This document shows, piece after piece, positions 4,001-35,715 of a stretch of DNA of 64,000 bases. The DNA is from Parcubacteria group bacterium (lineage in GTDB: Bacteria > Patescibacteriota > Minisyncoccia > JACPHC01). Position numbers and translations under genes: made by a program. The stretch spans positions 12,704 to 76,703 of the forward strand of contig JACPHC010000004.1 in NCBI GenBank assembly GCA_016188775.1, in the 5' to 3' direction. Below the pieces are notes generated by a model. The model made no database searches, had not been told where the DNA came from, and saw only the letters and a program-made list of their open reading frames with translations. Numbering within the stretch: position 1 is the first letter of the stretch; every line of letters starts with the position of its first letter.

Positions 4001-6711
4001 TTACCAGAACCAAACGCAAGCTCCGCAACGCTCATAGGATTAGAGGCGTAAGTTAGAACGCCGCCAGAAATATTACCGGTAAATACTCCGGCGGAGCAAT
4101 CTTCGGCTGAACAATGAAAATATTTTAAAGGAAAAGGAGAAGCGTTGGCTAGACGATAAACAATTCTGGCAAAACCGTCGTCGGAACCTTTAATGCCGCG
4201 TATATTGGTTATGCTTAAAGCGCCGGTGTCGCATCCCGTTATAACGCAAGAAGGTCCATCAACCACTGTTATAGCGCCAGTCGAGCAATTTAAATCCGAA
4301 CATTTAGCGTATCTAAGATTAGAATTGGTAGAATCCAGATAGCTTATTCGGGCAAACCCATCATTGGCAATAAAAATAGAATTATATACTCCCGGGTCGC
4401 TCGTTGTACTGCAGCCGATTAAACCGCAGCCAGTCTCGCCGTCTATTTTTTGAACAAGACCGCTAGCGCAATCTAGATGAGTGCAGTTGATATATCTCAA
4501 TCCTGTTTCTCCTCCTCCCGTTGTAAAAATAATTTTTCCAAAATCATTTGAAGCAAGAGCAAATGACGGATTTCCCGCGCCATTCCCGGTGGAAACACTG
4601 CAGTCAGTTAACACGCACCCCGACCCCGCGACACTTGTTATAACGCCTGAAGAGCAACCAATATCAAAACAACGACTAAAATTAATGCTGCTAGAGCCAG
4701 TCCTTCTATTATGAACAATTCTGGCAAAACCGTCGGAACCTTTAATTATAGAGGTGAAACTTGTGCCATTTGCGCCATTTGTTGCGCAATTGGTTAAGAC
4801 GCAACCCGTAACGCCATCAAGAATGGCAACTGTGCCGGTTGAGCAATCTAAATCAGCGCAATGAGCATATTTTAAAATTCCAGATGTATAGGATGTATAA
4901 CTAATCATTGCAAATCCATTATTATCAAGAGTTATGGAATTGTAATGGCCTGTATTTTCAGCGGTATTGCAGCCGGTTAAAACGCAACCCGTTCCGCCAT
5001 CTAAAAGAGCGGCGGTATAGTCAGTGCAGTCTATATTTTTACATCTGACATATTTAAGATCGCCATTGGTGTCATCTCTATAACTTATTCGGGCAAATCC
5101 ATCAGTGGCAAATATTGTAAGCGATGGCGTCGCTAATATTTTACCGCTACCACTATTTTCACAGTCAGTTAATAAACAGCCGGTATTTCCATCTAAAAGA
5201 TTAACCGTACCTTCGGCGATCGTCTTCCTCAACTCCATCTTGGGCTTATTATTAACCATATCATCCGTGTCAATTCCGGCGCCGTTAAAAGTAATAGATT
5301 TGGCCGTTTCATTGTTAATTCCAAAAGTCGGAGCCACGCTGGTGACAGTTGGAGCGAAAATGGTAAAAGAACGGGTATTGGAAGTACCAGTGATTGGAGT
5401 GGAACGGGAAACAGAAATGGTTCCGGTGATGTTGGTTGATCCTTCCTGTCCCGGCACTCGGACGGCGATACAAGTATTAGTGTAAGCCGAGCCAGCGCAT
5501 TTGGTTGAGCCGGTAATTTGGGTGGCGGCTGAAGCGTTAATGGTAATAGCCCCAGCGGTTCCAAAATGATCTCCATTTAAAGCAATGACTTTGCCGATTT
5601 GATCATCCGGAGTCGTGTCTATTTGACCCGGACCTTCGATTGTTCCGGCATCATCAGCAATAGAGCAAAGACGGGGCAGAATCGTGAAAGCGAAATTAGA
5701 TGATTGGCCGGAAACAGTGACTGTGATGTTTCCGGAAATTCCGGCGTCAGAGGGAATCGCGGTGGTTATAGCCGCGTCAGTCCAATTAGTGGTTGGAGAA
5801 ACAACGATATTAGCGGAGCCATTGATGGTTAAAGTTGAAGCGTCTTGAGTGGCGCCGAAACCAGCGCCGTTGATTGAGATAGTGTCTGATTGTCTGGCTG
5901 AAGCAATACCGCTAGCAATGGATGAACCAGTCGGACAAGTAGTTTCGGCTCCAGCCTCGGTCAAGTCAACTGTTGTAATAGCCGGTCCGACGGAAAAATC
6001 CGGCGTTGTCATTTTCGTCCGGTCAGCGTCAGCCAGTTCCGAGCCTTCAACAATAAAATTGAGAGTTCGGCCGGAACTTACAACAGTGTTATGATCCCAA
6101 ACTTCAAGATAAAGATATTCGTTGGCTAAAGTAAAAGGGCCGACGGAAGAAGAGGCGGTGTTGATGGTGGAGGCGCCTCCGGTCCACCAATCAACGGCGG
6201 TCGGATCATGAGAGAAAAGAAGAACCGCTCCGGTTAAAGAAGTGTCCTGGGGAACTCGAAAAACCTGGAAGGCCGGATGAGAGGTGACGTTGGCTCTGTT
6301 GTCGGTTTTTCTGACATTGAAAGTCCAGGTTCCGGCGGCGAAAGTGCCGGACATTTGGGCGTTGGAAAACCAGCCGTAGGGTTGAGGCGTGGCTCCCGGA
6401 GTGCCGGTGGTAGTGCTTGTAACTCCCGGCCTGATAACGGTTTGGACAGCGGAAGCCGGAGAAGTAATAGCTGATGTGGTGTTTGAAGCTTGATCCGGAA
6501 CAGTTCCGTCTCTCATTATCCAAGTTCCGGCCATTCCGGAAACTTCCTGATGAAGATAAAAAGTTTTGACAGCGGCGTTAGCTGAATTTTTCTCAACGCT
6601 CACCTGCGGCGGGTTTTTGGATAAATCCAAAAAGACATCATAGGGAACCGCTGTCCCTAAAATGGATAAAGATAAAATTACGACCAGAGATAGTTTTTTA
6701 AAATAGTTCAT
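1021..6711 (-). CDS. giant secreted surface protein (1896 aa) with about 14 Cys-rich ~60-aa repeats, FN3-like and IPT/TIG-like domains
   Basis: N-terminal signal-like peptide MNYFKKLSLVVILSLSILGTA. Repeats of pattern LDGxTGCVLTxC...DGFARIxY...LKYxxCxDxDCSxG. FN3-like stretches (TSYHWQARVRS, TQYFFRVSAKDS). IPT/TIG-like (PVVTSVSPSSGFDNGTISSVSITGANF). Confidence 0.8.
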   Translation of the reverse strand: MNYFKKLSLVVILSLSILGTAVPYDVFLDLSKNPPQVSVEKNSANAAVKTFYLHQEVSGMAGTWIMRDGTVPDQASNTTSAITSPASAVQTVIRPGVTSTTTGTPGATPQPYGWFSNAQMSGTFAAGTWTFNVRKTDNRANVTSHPAFQVFRVPQDTSLTGAVLLFSHDPTAVDWWTGGASTINTASSSVGPFTLANEYLYLEVWDHNTVVSSGRTLNFIVEGSELADADRTKMTTPDFSVGPAITTVDLTEAGAETTCPTGSSIASGIASARQSDTISINGAGFGATQDASTLTINGSANIVVSPTTNWTDAAITTAIPSDAGISGNITVTVSGQSSNFAFTILPRLCSIADDAGTIEGPGQIDTTPDDQIGKVIALNGDHFGTAGAITINASAATQITGSTKCAGSAYTNTCIAVRVPGQEGSTNITGTISVSRSTPITGTSNTRSFTIFAPTVTSVAPTFGINNETAKSITFNGAGIDTDDMVNNKPKMELRKTIAEGTVNLLDGNTGCLLTDCENSGSGKILATPSLTIFATDGFARISYRDDTNGDLKYVRCKNIDCTDYTAALLDGGTGCVLTGCNTAENTGHYNSITLDNNGFAMISYTSYTSGILKYAHCADLDCSTGTVAILDGVTGCVLTNCATNGANGTSFTSIIKGSDGFARIVHNRRTGSSSINFSRCFDIGCSSGVITSVAGSGCVLTDCSVSTGNGAGNPSFALASNDFGKIIFTTGGGETGLRYINCTHLDCASGLVQKIDGETGCGLIGCSTTSDPGVYNSIFIANDGFARISYLDSTNSNLRYAKCSDLNCSTGAITVVDGPSCVITGCDTGALSITNIRGIKGSDDGFARIVYRLANASPFPLKYFHCSAEDCSAGVFTGNISGGVLTYASNPMSVAELAFGSGNFLRVVFVVNPIGSSPHLNYIRCVDIDCVSVVRNAVEIFTANNQGSYIKNILGQDGFSRIVYQNDSPASGAGFLKYIRCANSNCSAGIIRTLDGGSNCKITGCSTLTAAGSYPSIAIGSADGFARIAYQDSNLDLKFIRCADLDCSTGVMNLLDGNTGCVLTNCATGDSGRFTSIAVGSDGFPRIVYGDPATSQVKYAKCADINCASGIITPISGTGCALTGCGAGYNANSISLALNPADDFGRVVFDNRFISCSDANCAVGVSTDISSSNNSSMALGSDNLARIVSINPLRYIRCPNTACTGATVVNLDGIAGCVLSGCTTSTAILSPNDTPSLILDSNQYPAIAYYKYSTESSLRFARCNDANCSAGVVKTLDGDTGCTLSGCDTDAFTGSFASLVLDSTDGLAKIAYKETNNGVLATNDLKYVKCLTDNCSGVLAIPGASVTINTAYTSITGTFNLNAASLGFYKARVTNQDTQIGEFGDGSTTGFEVRATAPVVTSVSPSSGFDNGTISSVSITGANFTADTLVKLATTSQTDILSSPACAFASSTSMTGCGFDLTDKLLGNWTVVASNSVGSGSYSPFTVLDAKPIDPTALNQYRTDGSTAITTAGSTNESSVIFKMSMAGGKTNQTYYPQVEVKPIAQAFDGTGIVEGTGVLWTTGTATGQVTVSGLVSGTSYHWQARVRSDTVGGTNNTLSNWVSFGGNPETSADFMVDTTPPVVNLNGGSCGTAYSGVTASTANISFNASDLANSYPISAQIEYDTDSSLTTPNALSSMLSIPENEAGLTKTINLLNLTASTQYFFRVSAKDSANNGPALNPSATPFCSLTTGTTSPSKTVEFFIFQEKNPTSPIATPIATPAITKKFRIRIPENNIQIKSAAIEINGTTQGGTNQTMDLKLKRGNLGATGYGAYPGAQFTFSSPASALPFKLLYDATSVFTASPQACNACETVTDLNGVSNTTKEYTLHVSPTATGSTVYLLNAKIILTYSYTP

Positions 6712-7019: not shown

Positions 7020-7418
7020 TTATTTTATTTTTTTCTCAAGTTGAGCGACTCGGGTTTCTAAAATAGGAAGGCGGCTTAAATCTGACTTTTGAATATGTTC
7101 CAATTCTTTGTCTATTTTTGAAAGATATTCGAAAATAACTTTAAAATCTTTTCCATTTTGCTCTTCGTGTAAAATTAATTTAGTTTTTAAATCTTCGATT
7201 TTATCGCTCAATACCTTTTGCCCCATTGTCAAAAATCTTAATTCTTCTCTTGTTTCGCGCCTAAATTCTTCCGTTTCTTTTTTAATAACTTCTTGCCCTT
7301 CTTTGATTTGCTGAAATTTTGAATCAATATCTTCCAAAACAATTCCAAAATAACGATCTTTTGAAGACGAATCTTTGCTGATTTTTTTAGTTTTACTTTT
7401 ATTTTTTTCTTTCATCAT
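7020..7418 (-). CDS. coiled-coil protein (132 aa), paralog of the upstream gene
   Basis: Charged heptad-rich sequence. Its C-terminus (RVAQLEKKIK) resembles that of 7415-7753 (RIELLEKKAGIK). Overlaps the upstream gene by 4 bp (ATGA). Confidence 0.55.
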   Translation of the reverse strand: MMKEKNKSKTKKISKDSSSKDRYFGIVLEDIDSKFQQIKEGQEVIKKETEEFRRETREELRFLTMGQKVLSDKIEDLKTKLILHEEQNGKDFKVIFEYLSKIDKELEHIQKSDLSRLPILETRVAQLEKKIK

Positions 7419-7776: not shown

Positions 7777-8424
7777 CTATTGTAATTTAATCAGGCCGAC
7801 AGTTCCGGTGTTAATATTGGTCGCTGAATTATAAGTAGTCCAACCGGCGCAGGCGGAAGCGTCGCTTTGCGTTCCCGCGCCCGCGCCGCCGGACCAATCC
7901 GATTGCCGGCAAATTCGATTGGAAAGAGAACGGGTAAGATATTCAGACCAAGAAACGGATTGAGAAGTCGCCCAAGTGACATTTAAATTAACCTGCAGGG
8001 TGGAAGAATCTAAAATATTTGAAGAACAATTTACGCTGCTGGTAAAGCTGACGATGTCGCCGGTTGACGAATCCCGACAAATGTTAAAAAACTGAACTTT
8101 ACGGGTAAAAGGAATGCCGGAAATTGTGATAATTTCTTGGCCGGTAGTAAATATAAACCGAGTCGGAGAAACTTGACGGGAAGCGTAATAATCAACGCCC
8201 TTGGAAGAATTAAAAATATCAGTCCAACTGGAAGCCATAACGGAACGGGCGATTTCTATTTCTTCCTGGCCGAGCCGAGAAGCGGTTGATTGTTCTCCGC
8301 CGGATTTTTGGCCTCGCAAAGAAACAAAAGTCAATTGGGAAACGAGAAAAATAATAACCGCCACTATCGCCACCGCCAGAATCATTTCCAGCAAAATTTG
8401 TCCGTTCTCGTTTAATCTTTTCAT
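7777..8424 (-). CDS. prepilin-type N-terminal domain protein (minor pilin / pseudopilin-like)
   Basis: N-terminus MKRLNENG|QILLEMILAVAIVAV has the G-x4-E prepilin cleavage and methylation pattern followed by a hydrophobic helix. Confidence 0.6.
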   Translation of the reverse strand: MKRLNENGQILLEMILAVAIVAVIIFLVSQLTFVSLRGQKSGGEQSTASRLGQEEIEIARSVMASSWTDIFNSSKGVDYYASRQVSPTRFIFTTGQEIITISGIPFTRKVQFFNICRDSSTGDIVSFTSSVNCSSNILDSSTLQVNLNVTWATSQSVSWSEYLTRSLSNRICRQSDWSGGAGAGTQSDASACAGWTTYNSATNINTGTVGLIKLQ

Positions 8425-8601
8425 TAGAACTTATGCAAAATATTTTTTTCGTAGCGAAAATTTAATGTTTTGAGCGAAGCGAAGCGAAAATTTCGCAGGA
8501 ATATACAAAGCATATTTCAAGAAATTTCCGCAAAGCCGCAGCCAAAACAATAAATTTGTAGTAGAAAAAGTATTTCGCATAAGGCCTGTAAATTCCAACC
8601 G

Positions 8602-9560: not shown

Positions 9561-10049
9561 TCAATCTGAAATTCGACCGCTGGTAGTGACGGTGATCAAT
9601 TTGGAAAAAGTCGGCGAGCTTTTGATGTTGATTTCCAAAGAATGGCTGACGGAGCCGGAAGGAACGCCGGTTAATCTTTCAAAAGTGATGTCCAAAGGCG
9701 AACCCAGTCCCCCGCCATCGAAAGTTTTATATTCAACGCGATTGGATAAAAATAAGGTTTCTTTAACCGCGCCGGAAGCGAAAGTCGTCAGCGTGGAAAA
9801 TAAGCGGTAGCCGGCTAAAGAATTATCAAATCTTACTCCCCAGCGAGACCCGTCTTCGCCGGATAAGGCTCGAGCCTGAGCTTCTCTTAATTTTCCGACA
9901 ATTTCACGCGAGGCGATGTCCAAAATCGCGCCTCGCTGGAAAGACTGGTAAGCCGCGGTTAAAGCGACGGATAAAATGGCAATAATGCCCATAACGAGAA
10001 TGAGTTCCAAAAGAGTGAAACCGGTCAATTTTTTTTTCTTAAATGGCAT
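9561..10049 (-). CDS. type IV pilin-like protein (prepilin-type N-terminus)
   Basis: N-terminus MPFKKKKLTG|FTLLELILVMGIIAIL is a canonical class III signal with Glu at +5. Confidence 0.75.
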   Translation of the reverse strand: MPFKKKKLTGFTLLELILVMGIIAILSVALTAAYQSFQRGAILDIASREIVGKLREAQARALSGEDGSRWGVRFDNSLAGYRLFSTLTTFASGAVKETLFLSNRVEYKTFDGGGLGSPLDITFERLTGVPSGSVSHSLEINIKSSPTFSKLITVTTSGRISD

Positions 10050-10231: not shown

Positions 10232-11446
10232 TTATCTAAACGATCCGACTAATTGATAAATCGGAACGATAATGGAAACGGCGATGCCGCCGATGATAAG
10301 ACCAATAACCAGAAGCAAAACCGGCTCAATCAGAGAAACTAAATTTTTGAGAGAATTATCAACTTCTTCTTCGTAAAATTCCGATAAGCTGACCAGTATT
10401 TCTTCAAGATTGCCGGACCGCTCTCCCACGCCGATCATATTGGTGACCAAATGCGGAAAAAGTTTCGGTTCTCTTTTCAACATCGCGGCCAGAGTGATGC
10501 CTCGAGCCACGCCGGATTCGGCTGACTTAAGATAGGCTGATTTATAGAGATCATTGCCGATGGTATCGGCCGTGATCCGCAAAGAATCCAAAAACGGCAC
10601 CGCGCTTTTTAAAAGCGTGGCCAGAACCCGGGTGGAACGAGCCAGGGACACTTTTTTTATCAAATCGCTCGCAACCGGCAAATGAAAAAAGATTTTTTCG
10701 TACAAAAATTTTTTCCCGGCCGAGGAACGCCAAACCAGAACAGCGGAAAAAATTAAACCAATAACAAAAATCGCTATATATAAAGGATAAGCGGTGATAA
10801 AATCGCTGATGTTTACCAAGACTTGAGTAATGGCCGGAAGTTTGACCCCGGTTTCTTTAAAAGTTTTCGTCAGACGCGGCAAAACAACCGTAAACATCAA
10901 AGTTAAAACTCCAAAAGCCATAATGATAAGAATGGAGGGATAAATCATCGCCGATTTGACCCGGCGTTTCAGGGAGTATTCGGATTTCATTTGAGAAGAA
11001 AGTTCGGCAAAAACCTGCTCTAAATTTCCGGAAGCCTCGCCGGCTTTAACGAGACTGACAAATAAAAGAGGAAAATCTTTCGGAAATTTTTCAAAAGCCG
11101 CTGACAAAGGCTGGCCGCGCTGGAGCTCATACCGAATCTGGGAGAAAATTTTGGCCAGTATCGGTTTTTCCGCGTCCGCGATCAAAATATCAATCGCTTC
11201 GATAATCGGAATGCCGGCGCGAAGCATCGTGGCCAGATGTCTGGTAAAAACGATTTTATCGTCAATGGAAAGCCGGCCAAAAATAAAACCGGCAAAAGGA
11301 ATTTTTGCCTCGTTTTTTGGCGCCACTCGAATCGCTTGCCAGCCTTGACGTTTAATGAAATCCAGAACCGCCTCTTCGCTCGCGGCTTCAATTTCTCCTT
11401 CTTGTAAAATTCCTTGGGAATCGGACGCGGTATAATTATAAATCAT
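10232..11446 (-). CDS. pilC: type IV pilus / type II secretion platform protein (GspF/PilC family)
   Basis: 404 aa with three TM regions and two GspF-like repeats (e.g. LATMLRAGIPIIEAI, LSLIEPVLLLVIGLIIGGIAV). Confidence 0.88.
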   Translation of the reverse strand: MIYNYTASDSQGILQEGEIEAASEEAVLDFIKRQGWQAIRVAPKNEAKIPFAGFIFGRLSIDDKIVFTRHLATMLRAGIPIIEAIDILIADAEKPILAKIFSQIRYELQRGQPLSAAFEKFPKDFPLLFVSLVKAGEASGNLEQVFAELSSQMKSEYSLKRRVKSAMIYPSILIIMAFGVLTLMFTVVLPRLTKTFKETGVKLPAITQVLVNISDFITAYPLYIAIFVIGLIFSAVLVWRSSAGKKFLYEKIFFHLPVASDLIKKVSLARSTRVLATLLKSAVPFLDSLRITADTIGNDLYKSAYLKSAESGVARGITLAAMLKREPKLFPHLVTNMIGVGERSGNLEEILVSLSEFYEEEVDNSLKNLVSLIEPVLLLVIGLIIGGIAVSIIVPIYQLVGSFR

Positions 11447-31251: not shown

Positions 31252-31270
31252 TCCCAGTTCGAATCTCACC
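31252..31270 (+). other. tRNA 3-prime-end-like fragment (AGTTCGAATCTCACC identical to the T-arm/acceptor of the tRNA-Ser at 35526-35615, opposite orientation)
   Basis: 15-nt exact match read directly. The surrounding sequence does not fold as a full tRNA. Confidence 0.4.
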
Positions 31271-31323
31271 ACTAATCAATAATCCAAATAAATATACTTT
31301 TACAAAGTATATTTATTTGGATT

Positions 31324-31617
31324 GGCGGTGAAATTATATCCTTTGCGCGAACCTTTTTCGAGGGACGATGACCCGACCAGCCGCCCGCCTCCGCTAACGC
31401 TCCGGCGGCAACCTCGCAGAAAAATATCCTCCGCCTTCTTGATTTTGCGCGCGCCCGATTTTTTCTTCTAAAAAGGAAGAGGATATTTTTCTGCTCGGTT
31501 CCGCCCTCCAAGTATTCGGGCGGAGCGGCGGGGCTTCTGCGCTCGGGCGCGGCAGAATTCCCCCCACCCCCCTTCCGCCGCGCCCGAGCTTCCACGGCGA
31601 AAATTTTTTGCGGCTAA
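31324..31617. repeat. GC-rich inverted repeat, left copy (IR-L, ~290 bp with an ~85-bp insertion relative to IR-R)
   Basis: The reverse complement of 31341-31617 aligns near-identically with 33797-34021 (e.g. GGCGCGCGCAAAATCAA..GCGGAGGATATTTTTCTGCGAGGTTGCCGCCGGAGCGTTAGCGGAGGCGGGCGG). Confidence 0.85.
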
Positions 31618-32231
31618 TTGATTTTTACAAAATAACAAAGCCAGTTTGTTTTTCGTTCGTCATCCTCGACATGCGTACTCATTTTTAGCACAGAAAACCC
31701 ATTTTGCTCAAGTAGATTTTTGAACTCATCTTGAGTGTAGAACGAAAAATACCGACTGATTCCGCCATATTTATTTTCGTTTATCATTCCTTCGTCCATT
31801 CCGTTTTTCTCTTTGACCGAGATAAAACCGACGCCGCCGTTTTTGATAATTCGTTTTGTTTCCTGCAAAACTCCAACAACATCTTTTTTGGGTATGTGTA
31901 AAAAACTAGCGGCTGCCCAAAATCCGTCAAATTCTCCGTCTTGGAAAGTGGTTTTGCTAAAATCCATTTTTTGAAATTTTCCTTTTGGCACTCTCTCGCT
32001 TGCCACCCTTAACATTCCTTCGGAAGCGTCTATACCCGTATAATCAAAACCATTTTCCACAAAAACGGCAGCGTCTCGTCCGGCTCCGCAACCGAGGTCA
32101 ATAACTTTTTTTCCGTTAATAATACTTTTGTAAAAATCAAATTCTTCAACCCGAAAATGAGCGAAATGACCTGCGCTATAGTCGGGAGCGATTTTGTCAT
32201 ATGTTTCTGCTGTTTTCTGTTTGATGTCCAT
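31614..32231 (-). CDS. class I SAM-dependent methyltransferase
   Basis: Motif I VIDLGCGAGRDAAVF. 205 aa. Confidence 0.8.
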   Translation of the reverse strand: MDIKQKTAETYDKIAPDYSAGHFAHFRVEEFDFYKSIINGKKVIDLGCGAGRDAAVFVENGFDYTGIDASEGMLRVASERVPKGKFQKMDFSKTTFQDGEFDGFWAAASFLHIPKKDVVGVLQETKRIIKNGGVGFISVKEKNGMDEGMINENKYGGISRYFSFYTQDEFKNLLEQNGFSVLKMSTHVEDDERKTNWLCYFVKIN

Positions 32232-32233
32232 AA

Positions 32234-32509
32234 TTATTTTTCTTTTGTCTCAAATTGTATAATTTGGAAGCCATATTTTTCTACTGCTTCCGGCGACCAA
32301 AAAGTTTGGCCTTTGGTTTTGAGAATATAGGTGGCGATAACTTCAACTTTTCTTCCAGTATATTCTTTTTTGTCTTTGTCCCACTCCTCTAAAACCAAAG
32401 TGTCGCCTTCGTTTACTTCAAAATCTGCAAGACGCAGTTCCAGCTTTTTCTTGCCGGAAATAATTTTCTCAAAATATTCTCGCCAAACTTTTTTACGAAT
32501 TGTTGCCAT
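32234..32509 (-). CDS. DUF3850 / ASCH-like (PUA-fold) small protein
   Basis: VWREYFEKIISGKKKLELRLADFEVNEGDTLVLEEWD...YTGRKVEVIATYI matches the DUF3850 pattern. Confidence 0.5.
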   Translation of the reverse strand: MATIRKKVWREYFEKIISGKKKLELRLADFEVNEGDTLVLEEWDKDKKEYTGRKVEVIATYILKTKGQTFWSPEAVEKYGFQIIQFETKEK

Positions 32510-32511
32510 AG

Positions 32512-33057
32512 TTATTTTACTTCATAATCCCATCCCGGTCTCCATGCCTTAGTTTTTCGCCAATCTTCCGCAAACGCATCTTCCCATGTTTTACCCTTGA
32601 GCAAAACATCAAGCGCGAGTTGCGGGGCTTTATGGGCAACTATGGCAACGCTTTTGCCGTCGTAATTCTGTTTTAGAAAATCGAGAAAGTCAGCAATTCG
32701 TGTTTTTACATCCTCATAACTTTCGCCATCAGGAAATTTTTCGATTATCGCTTTTTCTTGCATTGGTTCAACAATACTCGACGGCTTAGCATTGTATTTG
32801 CCATAGTTGCATTCCCGTAATCTCGCGTCAGGAATAATCGGCACAATTCCCTCAAATGTCAGTTTTGCGGAATCAATGGCTCGCTTCAAATCAGAGCAAA
32901 ATACAATATCAAATTTTTTGTCTTTGATTTTATCTCTCAAATCAATGGATTGTTTTACTCCCAATTCTGAAAGCCCAACATCAAACCAACCGGAGGAAAT
33001 TTCTTTCTCATTATCCGTTGTCGTGCCGTGGACAAAATAAGTAATCTTGATTGCCAT
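32512..33057 (-). CDS. histidine phosphatase superfamily (phosphoglycerate-mutase-like) protein, RHG motif variant VHG
   Basis: YFVHGTTTDNE...GLSELGVKQ...SDLKRAIDSA...IVAHKAP parallels branch-1 histidine phosphatases. Confidence 0.55.
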   Translation of the reverse strand: MAIKITYFVHGTTTDNEKEISSGWFDVGLSELGVKQSIDLRDKIKDKKFDIVFCSDLKRAIDSAKLTFEGIVPIIPDARLRECNYGKYNAKPSSIVEPMQEKAIIEKFPDGESYEDVKTRIADFLDFLKQNYDGKSVAIVAHKAPQLALDVLLKGKTWEDAFAEDWRKTKAWRPGWDYEVK

Positions 33058-33061
33058 AAAT

Positions 33062-33523
33062 TTATTTAATCATCCCGCCGTGTACCAAACAGCGATAAAC
33101 AACTTTTCCACCAAAAGAAATTTCCTCTTTACCGGAAAAATTTGCAAGGTTGCCATCAGCAACAAAACGATACTCTTTGTCGTCGGCGAAAAAGTTGCTT
33201 GGTCCTCGCACTGGAATTACATCATTGTATTCTTGCATGAGTGCTTTTCGGAGGAAATCATATACATCTTTCTCGCTCACTTTTTCATCTAGGACAAAGC
33301 CGAAATAATTTGCACCCCAAATTGGTTTCTCATTTTCGTATACGATTTCCTCGCCGATAAAGTCGCGCCCGCCAAAATAAGTGTCGTGGTAAATTAGCCT
33401 GTCTTTTTCAAAATGATAATCCTCCGATTTTAGACGGGATGGCGCGACTTTTGGAGCGTCTTTATTAGCGTAAGTTGTCTTGTTCATCTCATTAAGAAAC
33501 TTTGTTAGTGTTTGAAGATTCAT
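33062..33523 (-). CDS. conserved hypothetical protein (153 aa)
   Basis: ORF tightly packed in the operon (5-bp gap to the HTH gene). No motif recognised with confidence. Confidence 0.5.
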   Translation of the reverse strand: MNLQTLTKFLNEMNKTTYANKDAPKVAPSRLKSEDYHFEKDRLIYHDTYFGGRDFIGEEIVYENEKPIWGANYFGFVLDEKVSEKDVYDFLRKALMQEYNDVIPVRGPSNFFADDKEYRFVADGNLANFSGKEEISFGGKVVYRCLVHGGMIK

Positions 33524-33528
33524 AAAAT

Positions 33529-33732
33529 TTATTTAATTAAATCCTCAATCGCGACATCAAGGGCTTTCGCAATTTTGCTCACTACAAAGACAGATGGCTT
33601 CTTGATAACACCTGTTTCAATTTTGGTTAGGGTCGTATAAGGTACATCAGCCTTACGAGCAAAATCATCTTGCGAAAGCTCTAATTTCTGTCGCAATTTC
33701 CTTATTTTCTGTCCCAGTTGATTACTTTCCAT
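33529..33732 (-). CDS. XRE-family helix-turn-helix transcriptional regulator
   Basis: LGQKIRKLRQKLELSQDDFARKADVPYTTLTKIETG is a classic Cro/C1 HTH. Confidence 0.85.
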   Translation of the reverse strand: MESNQLGQKIRKLRQKLELSQDDFARKADVPYTTLTKIETGVIKKPSVFVVSKIAKALDVAIEDLIK

Positions 33733-33796
33733 ATATTGATAACATATAACTGTTGCTATATTTCGGAGACAATATTATACTAACAGATATGAGGAC

Positions 33797-34037
33797 TTTC
33801 TTCAATGTAGCCGCAAAAAATTTTCGCCGTGGGAGCGAGGGCGCGGCGGAAGGGGGGTGTGGGGGGAAAAGTTTTCTTTTCCTTTTAGAAGAAAAAATTC
33901 GGCGCGCGCAAAATCAAAAAAGCGGAGGATATTTTTCTGCGAGGTTGCCGCCGGAGCGTTAGCGGAGGCGGGCGGCGGGGCGATTCAGTCCGTTCTTCGT
34001 TCGAAAAAGGTTCGCGCAAAGGTTAATACATCACCGC
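33797..34037. repeat. GC-rich inverted repeat, right copy (IR-R)
   Basis: See IR-L. The outer ends share CCTTTGCGCGAACC / GGTTCGCGCAAAGG. Confidence 0.85.
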
Positions 34038-34069
34038 CTTCGCCTCGCAGTAGCTCGGCTTCGGCGTGA

Positions 34070-35525
34070 CGCAGTCCGCAGAAGACGAGCGAAGGCGGGG
34101 GAATAAAATCAACGGAAGATGACGACCGACAAGTAATGTCTATTGAAGCGCAACTTTTTGAACTGCGAGAATACGCGCGTAAAGAAAATCTTGAAATTCT
34201 GGAGGAATTTCAAGAGTCGAAAAGCGCAAAGACACCCGGACGAGAAATCTTCGGCGAGATGATGGCGAAAATAGAAAGTGATGGAGATTTTGGCATACTC
34301 GCGTGGCACCCCGATCGCCTTGCGCGTAATAGTATTGACGGAGGACGCATTATCTACACCGTAGATCAGAAGAAAATAGTGTCTTTGCGTTTTCCGACAT
34401 TTTGGTTTGAACCAACCCCGCAGGGGCTCTTTATGTTGCAAGTGGCGTTCGGATGCGTCGTAAAGAATGGCTGGGACTTGCGCCTTTCGGATACCAAAAC
34501 AATCCACTTATTCGTAATATTGAACCGCACCCGACCGAAGCGCGTATTGTTAAATTAGCGTTTGAGGAATATGCGAAAGGCGTACACTCTTTTGTTTCTC
34601 TCGCGCAATTTTTGGCGGACCTCGGCGTTGTCTCAAAAAATAGAATGCCACTTGCCAAAGCTTCCATCAAACGACTTTTAACGAACAGAGCATATCTCGG
34701 CTTTTTGAAACACAAAGGAGAATGGTTTGATGGAAACTTTGAACCAATTCTTTCTCCCGCATTGTTTGAAGCCGTGCAGAAAATTTTGAAAACGAAAGAG
34801 CGGCCGCGCCACCGCCGCGCTCGGCACGATTTCCCATTTACCGGATTATTCCGGTGTGCCGAGTGCGGCTCAATGATTAGCGCGCAATGGGCGGTCAATC
34901 GCTGGGGTACAAAATATCGCTACTATCGCTGTTCAAAAAAGCGCGGCCGCTGTCCGCAACCATATATTCAAGAGGCGGAGTTGGCGCGGCAAATCAAGGC
35001 ACGGCTTCAAACAATCTCGCTTTGCGACAATCTCACCGATTGGATGTTGGAAAAAGTAAAAAGTTGGGAGCACGAGGAAATCGGAGCGTCGCAAAGCGAG
35101 GTTCAAAATCTTTCCGAAAATATTAAAACGGCAGAAGCGAGGATGGAAAAGCTGGTTTCCACTTATCTTGATGGCGACATTCCCAAACAAACTTATCTCA
35201 AAAAGAAAGATGAAATTTTACTCGCTTCTGCCGTTTTGGAGCAAAGGAAAAAAGATTTTGAAAACGGGAGAAAAAATTGGGTCGAACCCCTGCGGGAATG
35301 GATTTTAGATACGAAACAGGCCGATTTTTTGAGCACATCGAATGATTTTCACCAAATCAAAACATTTGTTCAAAAAATCGGAACGAACCCTCGGGTTCGT
35401 AACAAATCCGCCGTCTTTGATTTTTGCCCAGCCAGCCAGTTCGCCGCGAAGCGGCGAGGGATTTTGCGGAGCGCGGCCGCCTCGCGGCCGCGCGGAGCAA
35501 CCCTTTCAAATCGTGAAGTTTCTAT
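34070..35525 (+). pseudogene. large serine recombinase: frameshifted, without an in-frame start codon, and with a degenerate catalytic motif
   Basis: Resolvase-domain remnant (IKSTEDDDRQVMSIEAQ...DRLARN) with no start codon upstream. Frame shift near 34440-34460. Recombinase plus zinc-ribbon domain (FRCAECGSMIS...YYRCSKKRGRCPQP) in the second frame. The track ORF runs on through the tRNA only because no stop codon intervenes. Confidence 0.7.
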
Positions 35526-35615
35526 TGGCGGAGGCGGTGAGATTCGAACTCACGATGCCCTTTCGGACATACTTGCTTTCCAAGCAAGCGCACTAGGCCG
35601 CTATGCGACGCCTCC
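35526..35615 (-). tRNA. tRNA-Ser (anticodon GGA), class II with long variable arm, CCA encoded
   Basis: rc sequence GGAGGCG-TC-GCATAGCGGCCTAGTGCG-CTTGC-TTGGAAA-GCAAG-TATGTCCGAAAGGGCATC-GTGAG-TTCGAAT-CTCAC-CGCCTCC-G-CCA folds as a cloverleaf. Confidence 0.85.
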
Positions 35616-35715
35616 AATAGATTGGATTATATAGTTTAAAATCGGGAAAATCAAACGATATCAGTATTACATATTGATATTTTTTTTGTTATAATAAATA
35701 TAATCAATAAAAAAC

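Follow-up and report, generated by a model that had tools for sequence, protein, structure and literature searches.

A degraded large serine recombinase next to tRNA-Ser(GGA) in a Parcubacteria genome as the probable remnant of a small integrative element with twin inverted repeats

In the transposons Tn3 and gamma-delta, the res site lies between the divergent genes tnpA and tnpR and its binding can repress both, and in the yeast 2-micron plasmid the FLP/FRT system (FLP being a tyrosine recombinase) is located inside inverted repeats of 599 bp. The tycheposons of Prochlorococcus are small cargo-carrying elements found at tRNA genes in streamlined genomes, where they accrete in tandem and leave degraded remnants; most use tyrosine recombinases and a minority a large serine recombinase (LSR), with partial tRNA copies of about 40 nt and often with replication genes (bioRxiv 10.1101/2020.12.28.424599). 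Here we analyzed 64,000 nt from a Parcubacteria group bacterium (GCA_016188775.1, contig JACPHC010000004.1, positions 12,704 to 76,703), hereafter the window, in which a broken LSR gene ends at a tRNA-Ser(GGA) gene. We suggest, with a probability of roughly 85%, that window positions 31324-35529 are a no longer functional copy of a small integrative element with a wide distribution in Patescibacteria.

The + strand region 34070-35525 is an LSR pseudogene. The listing of open reading frames (ORFs) and six-frame translation give two overlapping open frames on the + strand, 34070-34558 and 34453-35634. The first holds IKSTEDDDRQVMSIEAQ...DRLARN and matches Resolvase (PF00239, 56.8 bits), while the second matches Recombinase (PF07508) with 55.7 bits and Zn_ribbon_recom (PF13408) with 48.2 bits; each of the three scores exceeds its curated cut-off. 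A catalytic domain with its nucleophilic serine, followed by PF07508 and then PF13408, is what is expected of an LSR; a continuous helix E within one intact ORF with a start codon is missing. The resolvase frame is closed upstream by a TGA (34067-34069), has no ATG, GTG or TTG ahead of the catalytic-serine motif IKSTEDDDRQ, and its first start codon (ATG 34136) is 3' of the catalytic serine. In an alignment with 11 homologues, the KSTEDDDRQ motif falls on the invariant K-S, the N-terminal MNKPKYFLYAR is absent and with it strand beta-1 (YFLYAR), and an invariant block of 20 residues corresponding to helix E (QSKYYSDNLAENIKRGIRQK) is gone.

The closest intact relative is P0001 of locus L001, with 87% amino acid (aa) identity to the window recombinase. 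At the DNA level, window 34105-34453 corresponds to L001 10036-10384 and window 34454-35549 to L001 10446-11541, so exactly 61 nt are absent at 34453/34454. This deletion, with no evident microhomology, takes out 20 codons of helix E and shifts the frame. At the 5' end, L001 9853-10035 (leader plus codons 1-11, about 183 nt) is swapped in the window for about 65 unrelated nt (34039-34104), with loss of the whole leader and the first 11-12 codons. An earlier sequence-only reading, made by a model without database searches, had described a resolvase remnant with recombinase and zinc-ribbon domains, lacking an in-frame start codon, and Pfam and the alignment agree with it; the 5' defect is larger than it had supposed, since the leader and codons 1-11 were replaced. 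It had also placed a frameshift near 34450, and the change of frame is real, although its nature is a 61-nt deletion and not a single-base indel. Alignment to intact LSRs, which it had proposed as a check, reveals two multi-base lesions. These exclude a single-base sequencing error as the cause, and no one-base correction would restore an intact ORF across the deletion and the 5' replacement. The parts of the pseudogene are:

34105-34453, + strand: recombinase fragment 1, resolvase catalytic domain from KSTEDDDRQ to ...QVAFG, catalytic serine kept
34453-34454, + strand: site of the 61-nt deletion, helix E codons lost and frame shifted
34454-35525, + strand: recombinase fragment 2, recombinase domain, zinc ribbon with coiled-coil region, C-terminal tail
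34039-34104, + strand: GC-rich filler replacing the B arm (a family repeat, described below), the leader and recombinase codons 1-11
35321-35381, + strand: imperfect palindrome in the recombinase coding region, also found in L001

The recombinase frame reads on, antisense, through the tRNA gene to a stop at 35634. ARAGORN finds a single tRNA in the whole window, tRNA-Ser(GGA) on the - strand at 35526-35615, which adjoins the recombinase 3' end at 35526, and Rfam agrees with 55.6 bits, the gathering score being 29. At 31321-31328 and 35522-35529 there is a direct repeat of 8 nt, ATTGGCGG, which takes in the last part of the acceptor stem together with the discriminator base and the CCA encoded in the tRNA gene. 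Both junctions agree with the pattern of the family to which the recombinase belongs:

35526-35615, - strand: tRNA-Ser(GGA), intact class II tRNA, acceptor stem complete
31321-31328, + strand: attL core ATTGGCGG, with GGCGG at 31324-31328, fitting the family pattern of flank, core and TGAAAT...CCTTTGCGCGAACC; in sequence ggatt-GGCGG-TGAAATTATATCCTTTGCGCGAACC, core 31324-31328
35522-35529, + strand: attR core ATTGGCGG, overlapping the tRNA discriminator base and CCA end; in sequence GAAGTTTCTATT-GGCGG-AGGCGGTGAGATTCGAAC, core 35525-35529

The element therefore occupies 31324-35529 (4.2 kb). It has the anatomy of a tRNA-targeting islet, with the recombinase as end gene adjoining the tRNA and a core repeat, short in this case (8 nt), at both ends, the tRNA being regenerated. 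The sequence-only reading had seen the recombinase 3' end running into a class II tRNA-Ser(GGA) of the opposite strand, had taken the enzyme as the mark of an integrated element and had proposed searching for an att core repeat beyond the cassette next to it. The tRNA is confirmed by both programs, the repeat is where it was to be sought, and the adjacency to a tRNA is the rule in the family.

The window recombinase was used in a protein search in which 8,000 candidates were scored (E<=1e-10), and at least 4,789 proteins among them were found at this threshold. The best 120 homologues, which are those listed (P0001-P0120), are 66-90% identical to it (66-87% in full-length matches), most have 500-590 aa, and those with a source name come mostly from Patescibacteria/candidate phyla radiation lineages. 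The window gene shares with them more than 60% full-length identity and an ORF running into a tRNA. Species-representative genomes contain 358 loci of this family. We compared 82 loci, being L001 and L002 (from an exact-protein look-up) and 80 from species-representative genomes, to which further metagenome contigs were added. In about 60 of the 82, a convergent tRNA lies directly against the recombinase 3' end or overlaps it, the others being mostly at a contig border or in a tandem array. Close relatives target tRNA-Ser with all four anticodons (GCT, TGA, GGA, CGA), and more distant ones target Arg, Glu, Leu, Lys, Gly, Val or Ala tRNAs. The C-terminal tails of the homologues (...GIRTH.., ..IRTLEG) are antisense translations of the tRNA T-arm. 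The deposited proteins P0001-P0120 carry 20-100 extra C-terminal residues, antisense of the adjacent tRNA and flank, and these tails account for protein lengths that range from 500 to 690 aa. The IMG/VR viral contigs gave no relatives, and a phage origin of the family was rejected for this reason.

Self-comparison of the loci with enough flank gives the intact layout core-A'-cargo-A-core*-B-recombinase-B'-core-tRNA, where A/A' and B/B' are inverted repeats. B/B' (about 130-140 nt) flanks the recombinase gene in most elements with enough flank, B' being the last ~40 ORF codons, ending at the tRNA, and B ending about 22 nt before the start codon. A/A' (180-290 nt) flanks a cargo of 1.1-7.1 kb in about 25 elements, with A contiguous with B. 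Recombinase-only elements without arm A were not found, an A-type arm being present at every internal junction examined. The attR site consists of B' arm, core and tRNA, and attL of flank, core and A' arm. The internal A/B junction, read as its reverse complement, gives B' arm, core and A' arm without a single mismatch, which means that attP is present in the integrated element as a complete inverted copy. The core corresponds to the last nucleotides of the tRNA acceptor arm and differs between targets, being GCGG at Ser tRNAs, GTGC at Arg, Gly and Leu, GTGA at Glu and TGGTGG at Lys. The median identity of B to B' inside one element is 99.2% (n=47), against a median of 65% for B' arms between elements; the arms of one element appear to evolve in concert.

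The resemblance between the two ends of the gene goes beyond the arms. In L001, the 22 nt before the start codon (CTGTTTCGTATCTAAAA..., 9979-10000) are the reverse complement of the WILDTKQ codons near nt 1290-1311 (11290-11311), and the ~80 nt between this segment and B' hold a hairpin of their own (L001 11313-11373; mirror region of the window, 35296-35381). Taken together with B/B', the whole recombinase leader mirrors the 3' end of its gene, and in an mRNA starting at the core the 5' and 3' ends could pair over about 155 nt. We found no description of the family or of this layout in open-access papers and bioRxiv. Our proposal, a tentative one, is that this may be a very abundant and not yet described family of integrative elements of Patescibacteria, which use many tRNA termini and have a perfect inverted attP within nested repeats evolving in concert and a mirror leader. 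Such a layout would then be a novel way for a serine integrase to be regulated or to work. It might serve for self-repression at an attP-like operator, for pairing of the 5' and 3' ends of the mRNA and/or for inverting a segment from time to time. The feature of the window is itself ordinary, a dead integrative element, and what is unusual is the layout of its family.

In L031, L035 and L082, two or three elements stand in tandem at a single tRNA, with B'(1)-core-A'(2) junctions, which implies that a site already filled (attR or attL) can still be a partner for attP. Many contigs stop inside A, B or B', either ~100-350 nt ahead of the recombinase start or at the 3' end of the gene (L003-L082, L102, L103). 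Since these repeats break short-read assemblies, the elements are probably under-counted and fragmented in metagenome-assembled genomes.

In the window copy, the following arms and cargo genes were recognized:

31324-31621, + strand: A' arm, left cargo inverted repeat, with two internal hairpins, 88.9% identical to the A arm of L001
33802-34038, + strand: A arm, right cargo inverted repeat, ending in the inverted internal core CCGCC (34034-34038)
35402-35524, + strand: B' arm, last ~40 recombinase codons, with a GC hairpin at 35481-35503
31614-32231, - strand: S-adenosylmethionine-dependent methyltransferase, 205 aa (Methyltransf_25, E=5e-19), intact ORF
32234-32509, - strand: DUF3850/ASCH protein, 91 aa, intact ORF
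32512-33057, - strand: histidine phosphatase His_Phos_1, 181 aa, intact, common to the L001 element
33062-33523, - strand: DUF5680 protein, 153 aa, intact, common to the L001 element
33529-33732, - strand: XRE/HTH_3 regulator, 67 aa, divergent from the recombinase, 94% identical to the L001 copy

The A' and A arms of the window share 84-92% identity, the right arm having a gap of 68 nt, and the conserved near-core motif TGAnATnnTAnCCTTTGCGCGAACC is found from 31329 onward and, inverted, at 34009-34033. B' is 95% identical, inverted, to the B arm of L001. The B arm itself was lost from the window copy: the internal site keeps A and the core, the discontinuity starts exactly there, and the filler follows. 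This is, then, a degraded member of the twin-inverted-repeat family. The break exactly at the internal core hints that mis-recombination by the recombinase may have initiated the damage. The filler is GC-rich and hairpin-prone, begins exactly at the internal core and has no match in the 82 related loci nor elsewhere in the window. A decayed B arm was considered as its origin and rejected, its local alignment score against the expected B arm and leader being that of shuffled sequence.

The sequence-only reading had treated an inverted-repeat-flanked cassette as a neighbor of the recombinase. The repeat arms are real, but the cassette is the cargo module of the same element, and not a separate transposon, since long inverted repeats are the native layout of the family. 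We also considered the arms as a repeated unit of the miniature inverted-repeat transposable element type or as a known RNA element; this was discarded, with only two copies in the 64-kb window and nothing at the Rfam gathering threshold (only chance hairpin matches at E<=5).

The five cargo ORFs are intact and all on the - strand. His_Phos_1, DUF5680 and XRE are common to the window and L001, the remaining cargo differs, and no replication genes were found among the cargo. A close XRE homologue is present in the same position, divergent and adjacent, in 13 related loci. The near-core sequences of the two A arms are of different allelic types, A' (attL) having TGAAATTATATCC, as in L036 and L020, and the internal A having TGATGTATTAACC, the type of L014 and L016. 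This difference and the mosaic cargo suggest a hybrid origin of the window element, by recombination between tandem elements, and counter the idea of a slow divergence of its arms after death. The arm divergence (84-92%) was rejected as a decay clock, since the arms of the intact L001 are 73% identical and those of the window are of different allelic types.

In six other loci (L007, L016, L036, L037, L044, L050), the cargo includes Mrr, GmrSD-HNH, EcoRI-type and C5 methylases, type I restriction-modification subunits and an AAA_21 ATPase, besides a xanthine/uracil permease, a GTP cyclohydrolase II fusion and an aromatic amino acid lyase. AbiEii-like ATPases are also found among the cargo of other elements of the family. 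ORFs of 57-156 aa lie wholly inside the GC-rich arms of the window (31272-31595, 33753-33962, 33857-34069), L001 (6745-7068, 9534-10004) and L002 (9621-10004). Public records call them hypothetical genes, some overlapping the recombinase start, and they are most likely annotation artefacts.

From this anatomy and the established chemistry of large serine integrases, we infer that an active ancestor was inserted by its own LSR, through conservative recombination of attP (B'-core-A') with attB (flank-core-tRNA end). The attB site would be the final nucleotides of tRNA-Ser(GGA), comprising the acceptor end, discriminator base and CCA, with the crossover within the last few, and the tRNA would stay intact because the element re-supplies the terminal nucleotides. 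The empty site is predicted as left flank, ATTGGCGG and tRNA, reading ...AAAGTATATTTATTTGGATTGGCGGAGGCGGTGAGATTCGAAC... Insertion would also have pushed away a hairpin formerly downstream of the tRNA:

31281-31323, no strand assigned: 20-bp hairpin abutting attL, 100% complementary

In the reconstructed empty site this hairpin comes directly after the tRNA, for which reason we regard it as probably the original terminator of tRNA-Ser, shifted by 4.2 kb. Hairpins are likewise found in the left flanks of L014, L039 and L002. In the window copy, the B arm, leader and codons 1-11 were replaced at the internal core, and the second lesion is the 61-nt deletion of helix E. With its enzyme dead, the element would be fixed in place, its five cargo genes still open.

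The internal inverted attP has the divergent XRE/cargo genes on one side and the recombinase gene on the other. L001 carries a sigma-70-like sequence (TCGAAA-17-TACAAT, 9816-9844) that stops 2-3 nt short of the internal core and is directed into B and the recombinase. Its mirror copy in the window A' arm (TCGAAA-17-TATAAT, 31361-31333, - strand) points out of the element across attL, and by eye most of the listed junctions have a TAnnAT hexamer equally far from the core. The location of the site and the conserved -10-like element pointing into B and the recombinase raise the possibility, about which we have some doubt, that the internal attP copy is a combined promoter and operator. Recombinase bound at this attP-like site would occlude its own promoter and thus repress its own synthesis.

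Several points weigh against this interpretation of the locus and its regulation. The source of the 65-nt filler is not explained by the model of the element, nor does the model account for a short inverted copy of the tRNA T-arm in the left flank:

31256-31270, + strand: inverted T-arm/acceptor copy AGTTCGAATCTCACC, 15/15 match to 35536-35550, outside the element and 53 nt to the left of attL

Neither an empty attB nor an excised circle was recovered, so that the insertion is deduced from junction anatomy only. One metagenome scan with the left flank and core gave seven unrelated chance matches, exact look-ups of the flanking proteins gave 2.4-kb contigs starting inside the tRNA, or nothing, and neither of the contigs of P0003 and P0022, two recombinases seen widely, is circular. 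The promoter was recognized by its match to the consensus, its -35 is weak, and the consensus may not be that of the host. An operator role, moreover, leaves unexplained the length of the repeats (130-290 nt) at about 99% identity.

The left flank shows further copies of tRNA segments. The 31256-31270 copy was considered as a far att site and rejected, being inverted and outside the element, with the true core repeat ATTGGCGG at the outer ends of A' and B'. Inverted T-loop/T-stem fragments were seen 53-89 nt beyond attL in 4 of 15 loci (15 nt in the window, 12 in L037, 11 in L009 and 10 in L002, the last at about 7243-7256), each matching the tRNA of its own locus, and are absent from at least 7 other loci. 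Direct copies of the tRNA 3' end (12-19 nt) are found 150-190 nt to the left of the A' arm in L002 (7138-7156), L055 (about 180 nt) and L035. In L035 the whole 191-nt spacer is duplicated with 100% identity between tandem elements (4698-4888 and 8273-8463). The direct copies may be older attR remnants or a small satellite unit travelling with the element. On the other side of the locus, a strong sigma-70-like site (TTGATT-17-TATAAT, 10/12 matches, 35626-35654, - strand) ends 11 nt upstream of the tRNA-Ser 5' end and is plausibly its promoter.

Long near-perfect inverted repeats around both the cargo and the recombinase gene could also be read as inversion sites, the cassette being an invertible phase-variable segment and the recombinase its invertase. 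Two loci seem to agree with this, L021 (7727-7965) and L071 (2254-2488), where tRNA(+), core, B and recombinase(+) are joined with the segment flipped in relation to the tRNA, and in L055 the cargo genes are on the opposite strand. However, about 60 loci are canonical against these two, whose contigs stop at or just before the other arm (B'), as a misassembly across an inverted repeat would; the flips could be real inversions or such misassemblies. The cargo has the same strand in 20 of 21 complete elements, the enzyme is an LSR of about 520 aa and not a Hin/Gin-type invertase, and junctions with a tRNA on one side and variable flanks fit integration. Frequent inversion was rejected on the evidence of P0053 and P0066, each with 8 or 9 contigs from different samples, all canonical. 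We consider an invertible cassette very improbable.

Another reading is that the remnant was domesticated, with a truncated product from ATG 34453, made up of the recombinase domain and the zinc ribbon, or the cargo operon, serving the host and the lesions being adaptive. A 393-codon ORF with its own ATG is indeed open (34453-35634), all cargo ORFs are intact, and the ratio of nonsynonymous to synonymous substitution rates (dN/dS) of the window recombinase against L001 is low, 0.14 (dS 0.37), with 0.155-0.19 in pairs of intact genes. A low ratio is expected equally from a recent inactivation, with most of the divergence from L001 predating it. The same truncation is found in none of the 82 related loci, and the promoter and leader of the 34453 ORF are gone. 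For these reasons we see only a slim chance of domestication. Beyond the two lesions, the gene has no further stops or frameshifts, and this, with the low dN/dS, points to an inactivation that is recent relative to the split from L001. The sequence-only reading had spoken of a decaying enzyme; it is inactivated, but its age was overstated, considering the dN/dS of 0.14, the lack of other lesions and the intact cargo. Finally, it is highly improbable that the recombinase is intact in the organism and its lesions are sequencing or assembly errors, even with what appears to be a metagenome-type assembly, in a region that is hard to assemble, where related contigs often break at repeats, since the internal lesion is a clean 61-nt deletion with good alignment on both sides and not a homopolymer slip, the 5' lesion trades about 183 nt for about 65 unrelated ones, and two independent multi-base lesions in one gene are unlikely as artefacts.

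As a defunct integrative element, the locus explains the pseudogene in this genome, sets the limits of an islet of 4.2 kb and shows five accessory genes to be cargo that was acquired horizontally and is locked in place. Patescibacteria are ultra-small and thought to be poor in mobile elements, yet this one recombinase family yields at least 4,789 proteins and 358 loci. With its restriction-modification, Mrr, GmrSD, AbiEii-like and metabolic cargo, it is a plausible vehicle for the exchange of defence and accessory genes. Each integrated copy shows attP and attR side by side, from which attB can be deduced in the sequence, and this would be useful for mining programmable integrases. If this is true, the family would provide matched attP/attB pairs for hundreds of natural integrases from sequence alone. 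To our knowledge, an internal inverted attP with ~99% identity of the repeats within elements and ~65% between them is a design not seen in other serine integrases.

Compared with known systems, the domain order (resolvase, helix E, recombinase, zinc ribbon with coiled-coil) is that of phage-type LSRs (A118/LI, Bxb1, phiC31, SPbeta SprA/YokA), the best matches among solved structures being SPbeta YokA (9dxh, E=5e-15) and the A118 integrase, and the junctions are built as expected from attP x attB recombination at a short core. Unlike them, the family is distant in sequence, has no relatives in viral contigs, forms elements of 3-9 kb without phage genes and targets the extreme 3' end of tRNAs. 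We know of no full inverted attP copy and long inverted repeats in the integrated forms of A118, Bxb1, phiC31 or SPbeta-type phages. The best NCBIfam matches are CcrB (100 bits) and XisF (80 bits), so far below the cut-offs of 900 and 375 that the recombinase is not a member of either family. The SCCmec Ccr and XisF/SpoIVCA recombinases are similar in being LSRs that move or excise non-viral chromosomal cassettes, but their targets are rlmH or developmental genes, and we are not aware of nested inverted repeats in these systems. The serine invertases and shufflons differ too: instead of a Hin/Gin protein of ~190 aa with a helix-turn-helix, the window gene has the LSR domain set, and the orientation is canonical in about 60 loci with 2 ambiguous exceptions.

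The res site of Tn3, as a site of a serine recombinase between divergent genes, offers an analogy for the putative role of the internal attP copy, although there a small resolvase performs resolution and not integration. If the element excises as a circle, its topology would be the same as in the 2-micron plasmid, with two unique arcs and two inverted repeats of ~400 nt centered on recombination sites; unlike in that plasmid, neither a circle nor a replication function was found in this case, and isomers of orientation are rare or absent. The nearest concept is that of the tycheposons, from which the window element departs in its 5-8-nt core at the tRNA terminus, its serine recombinase and its lack of replication genes, and what sets its family apart is the twin-inverted-repeat layout with an internal inverted attP.

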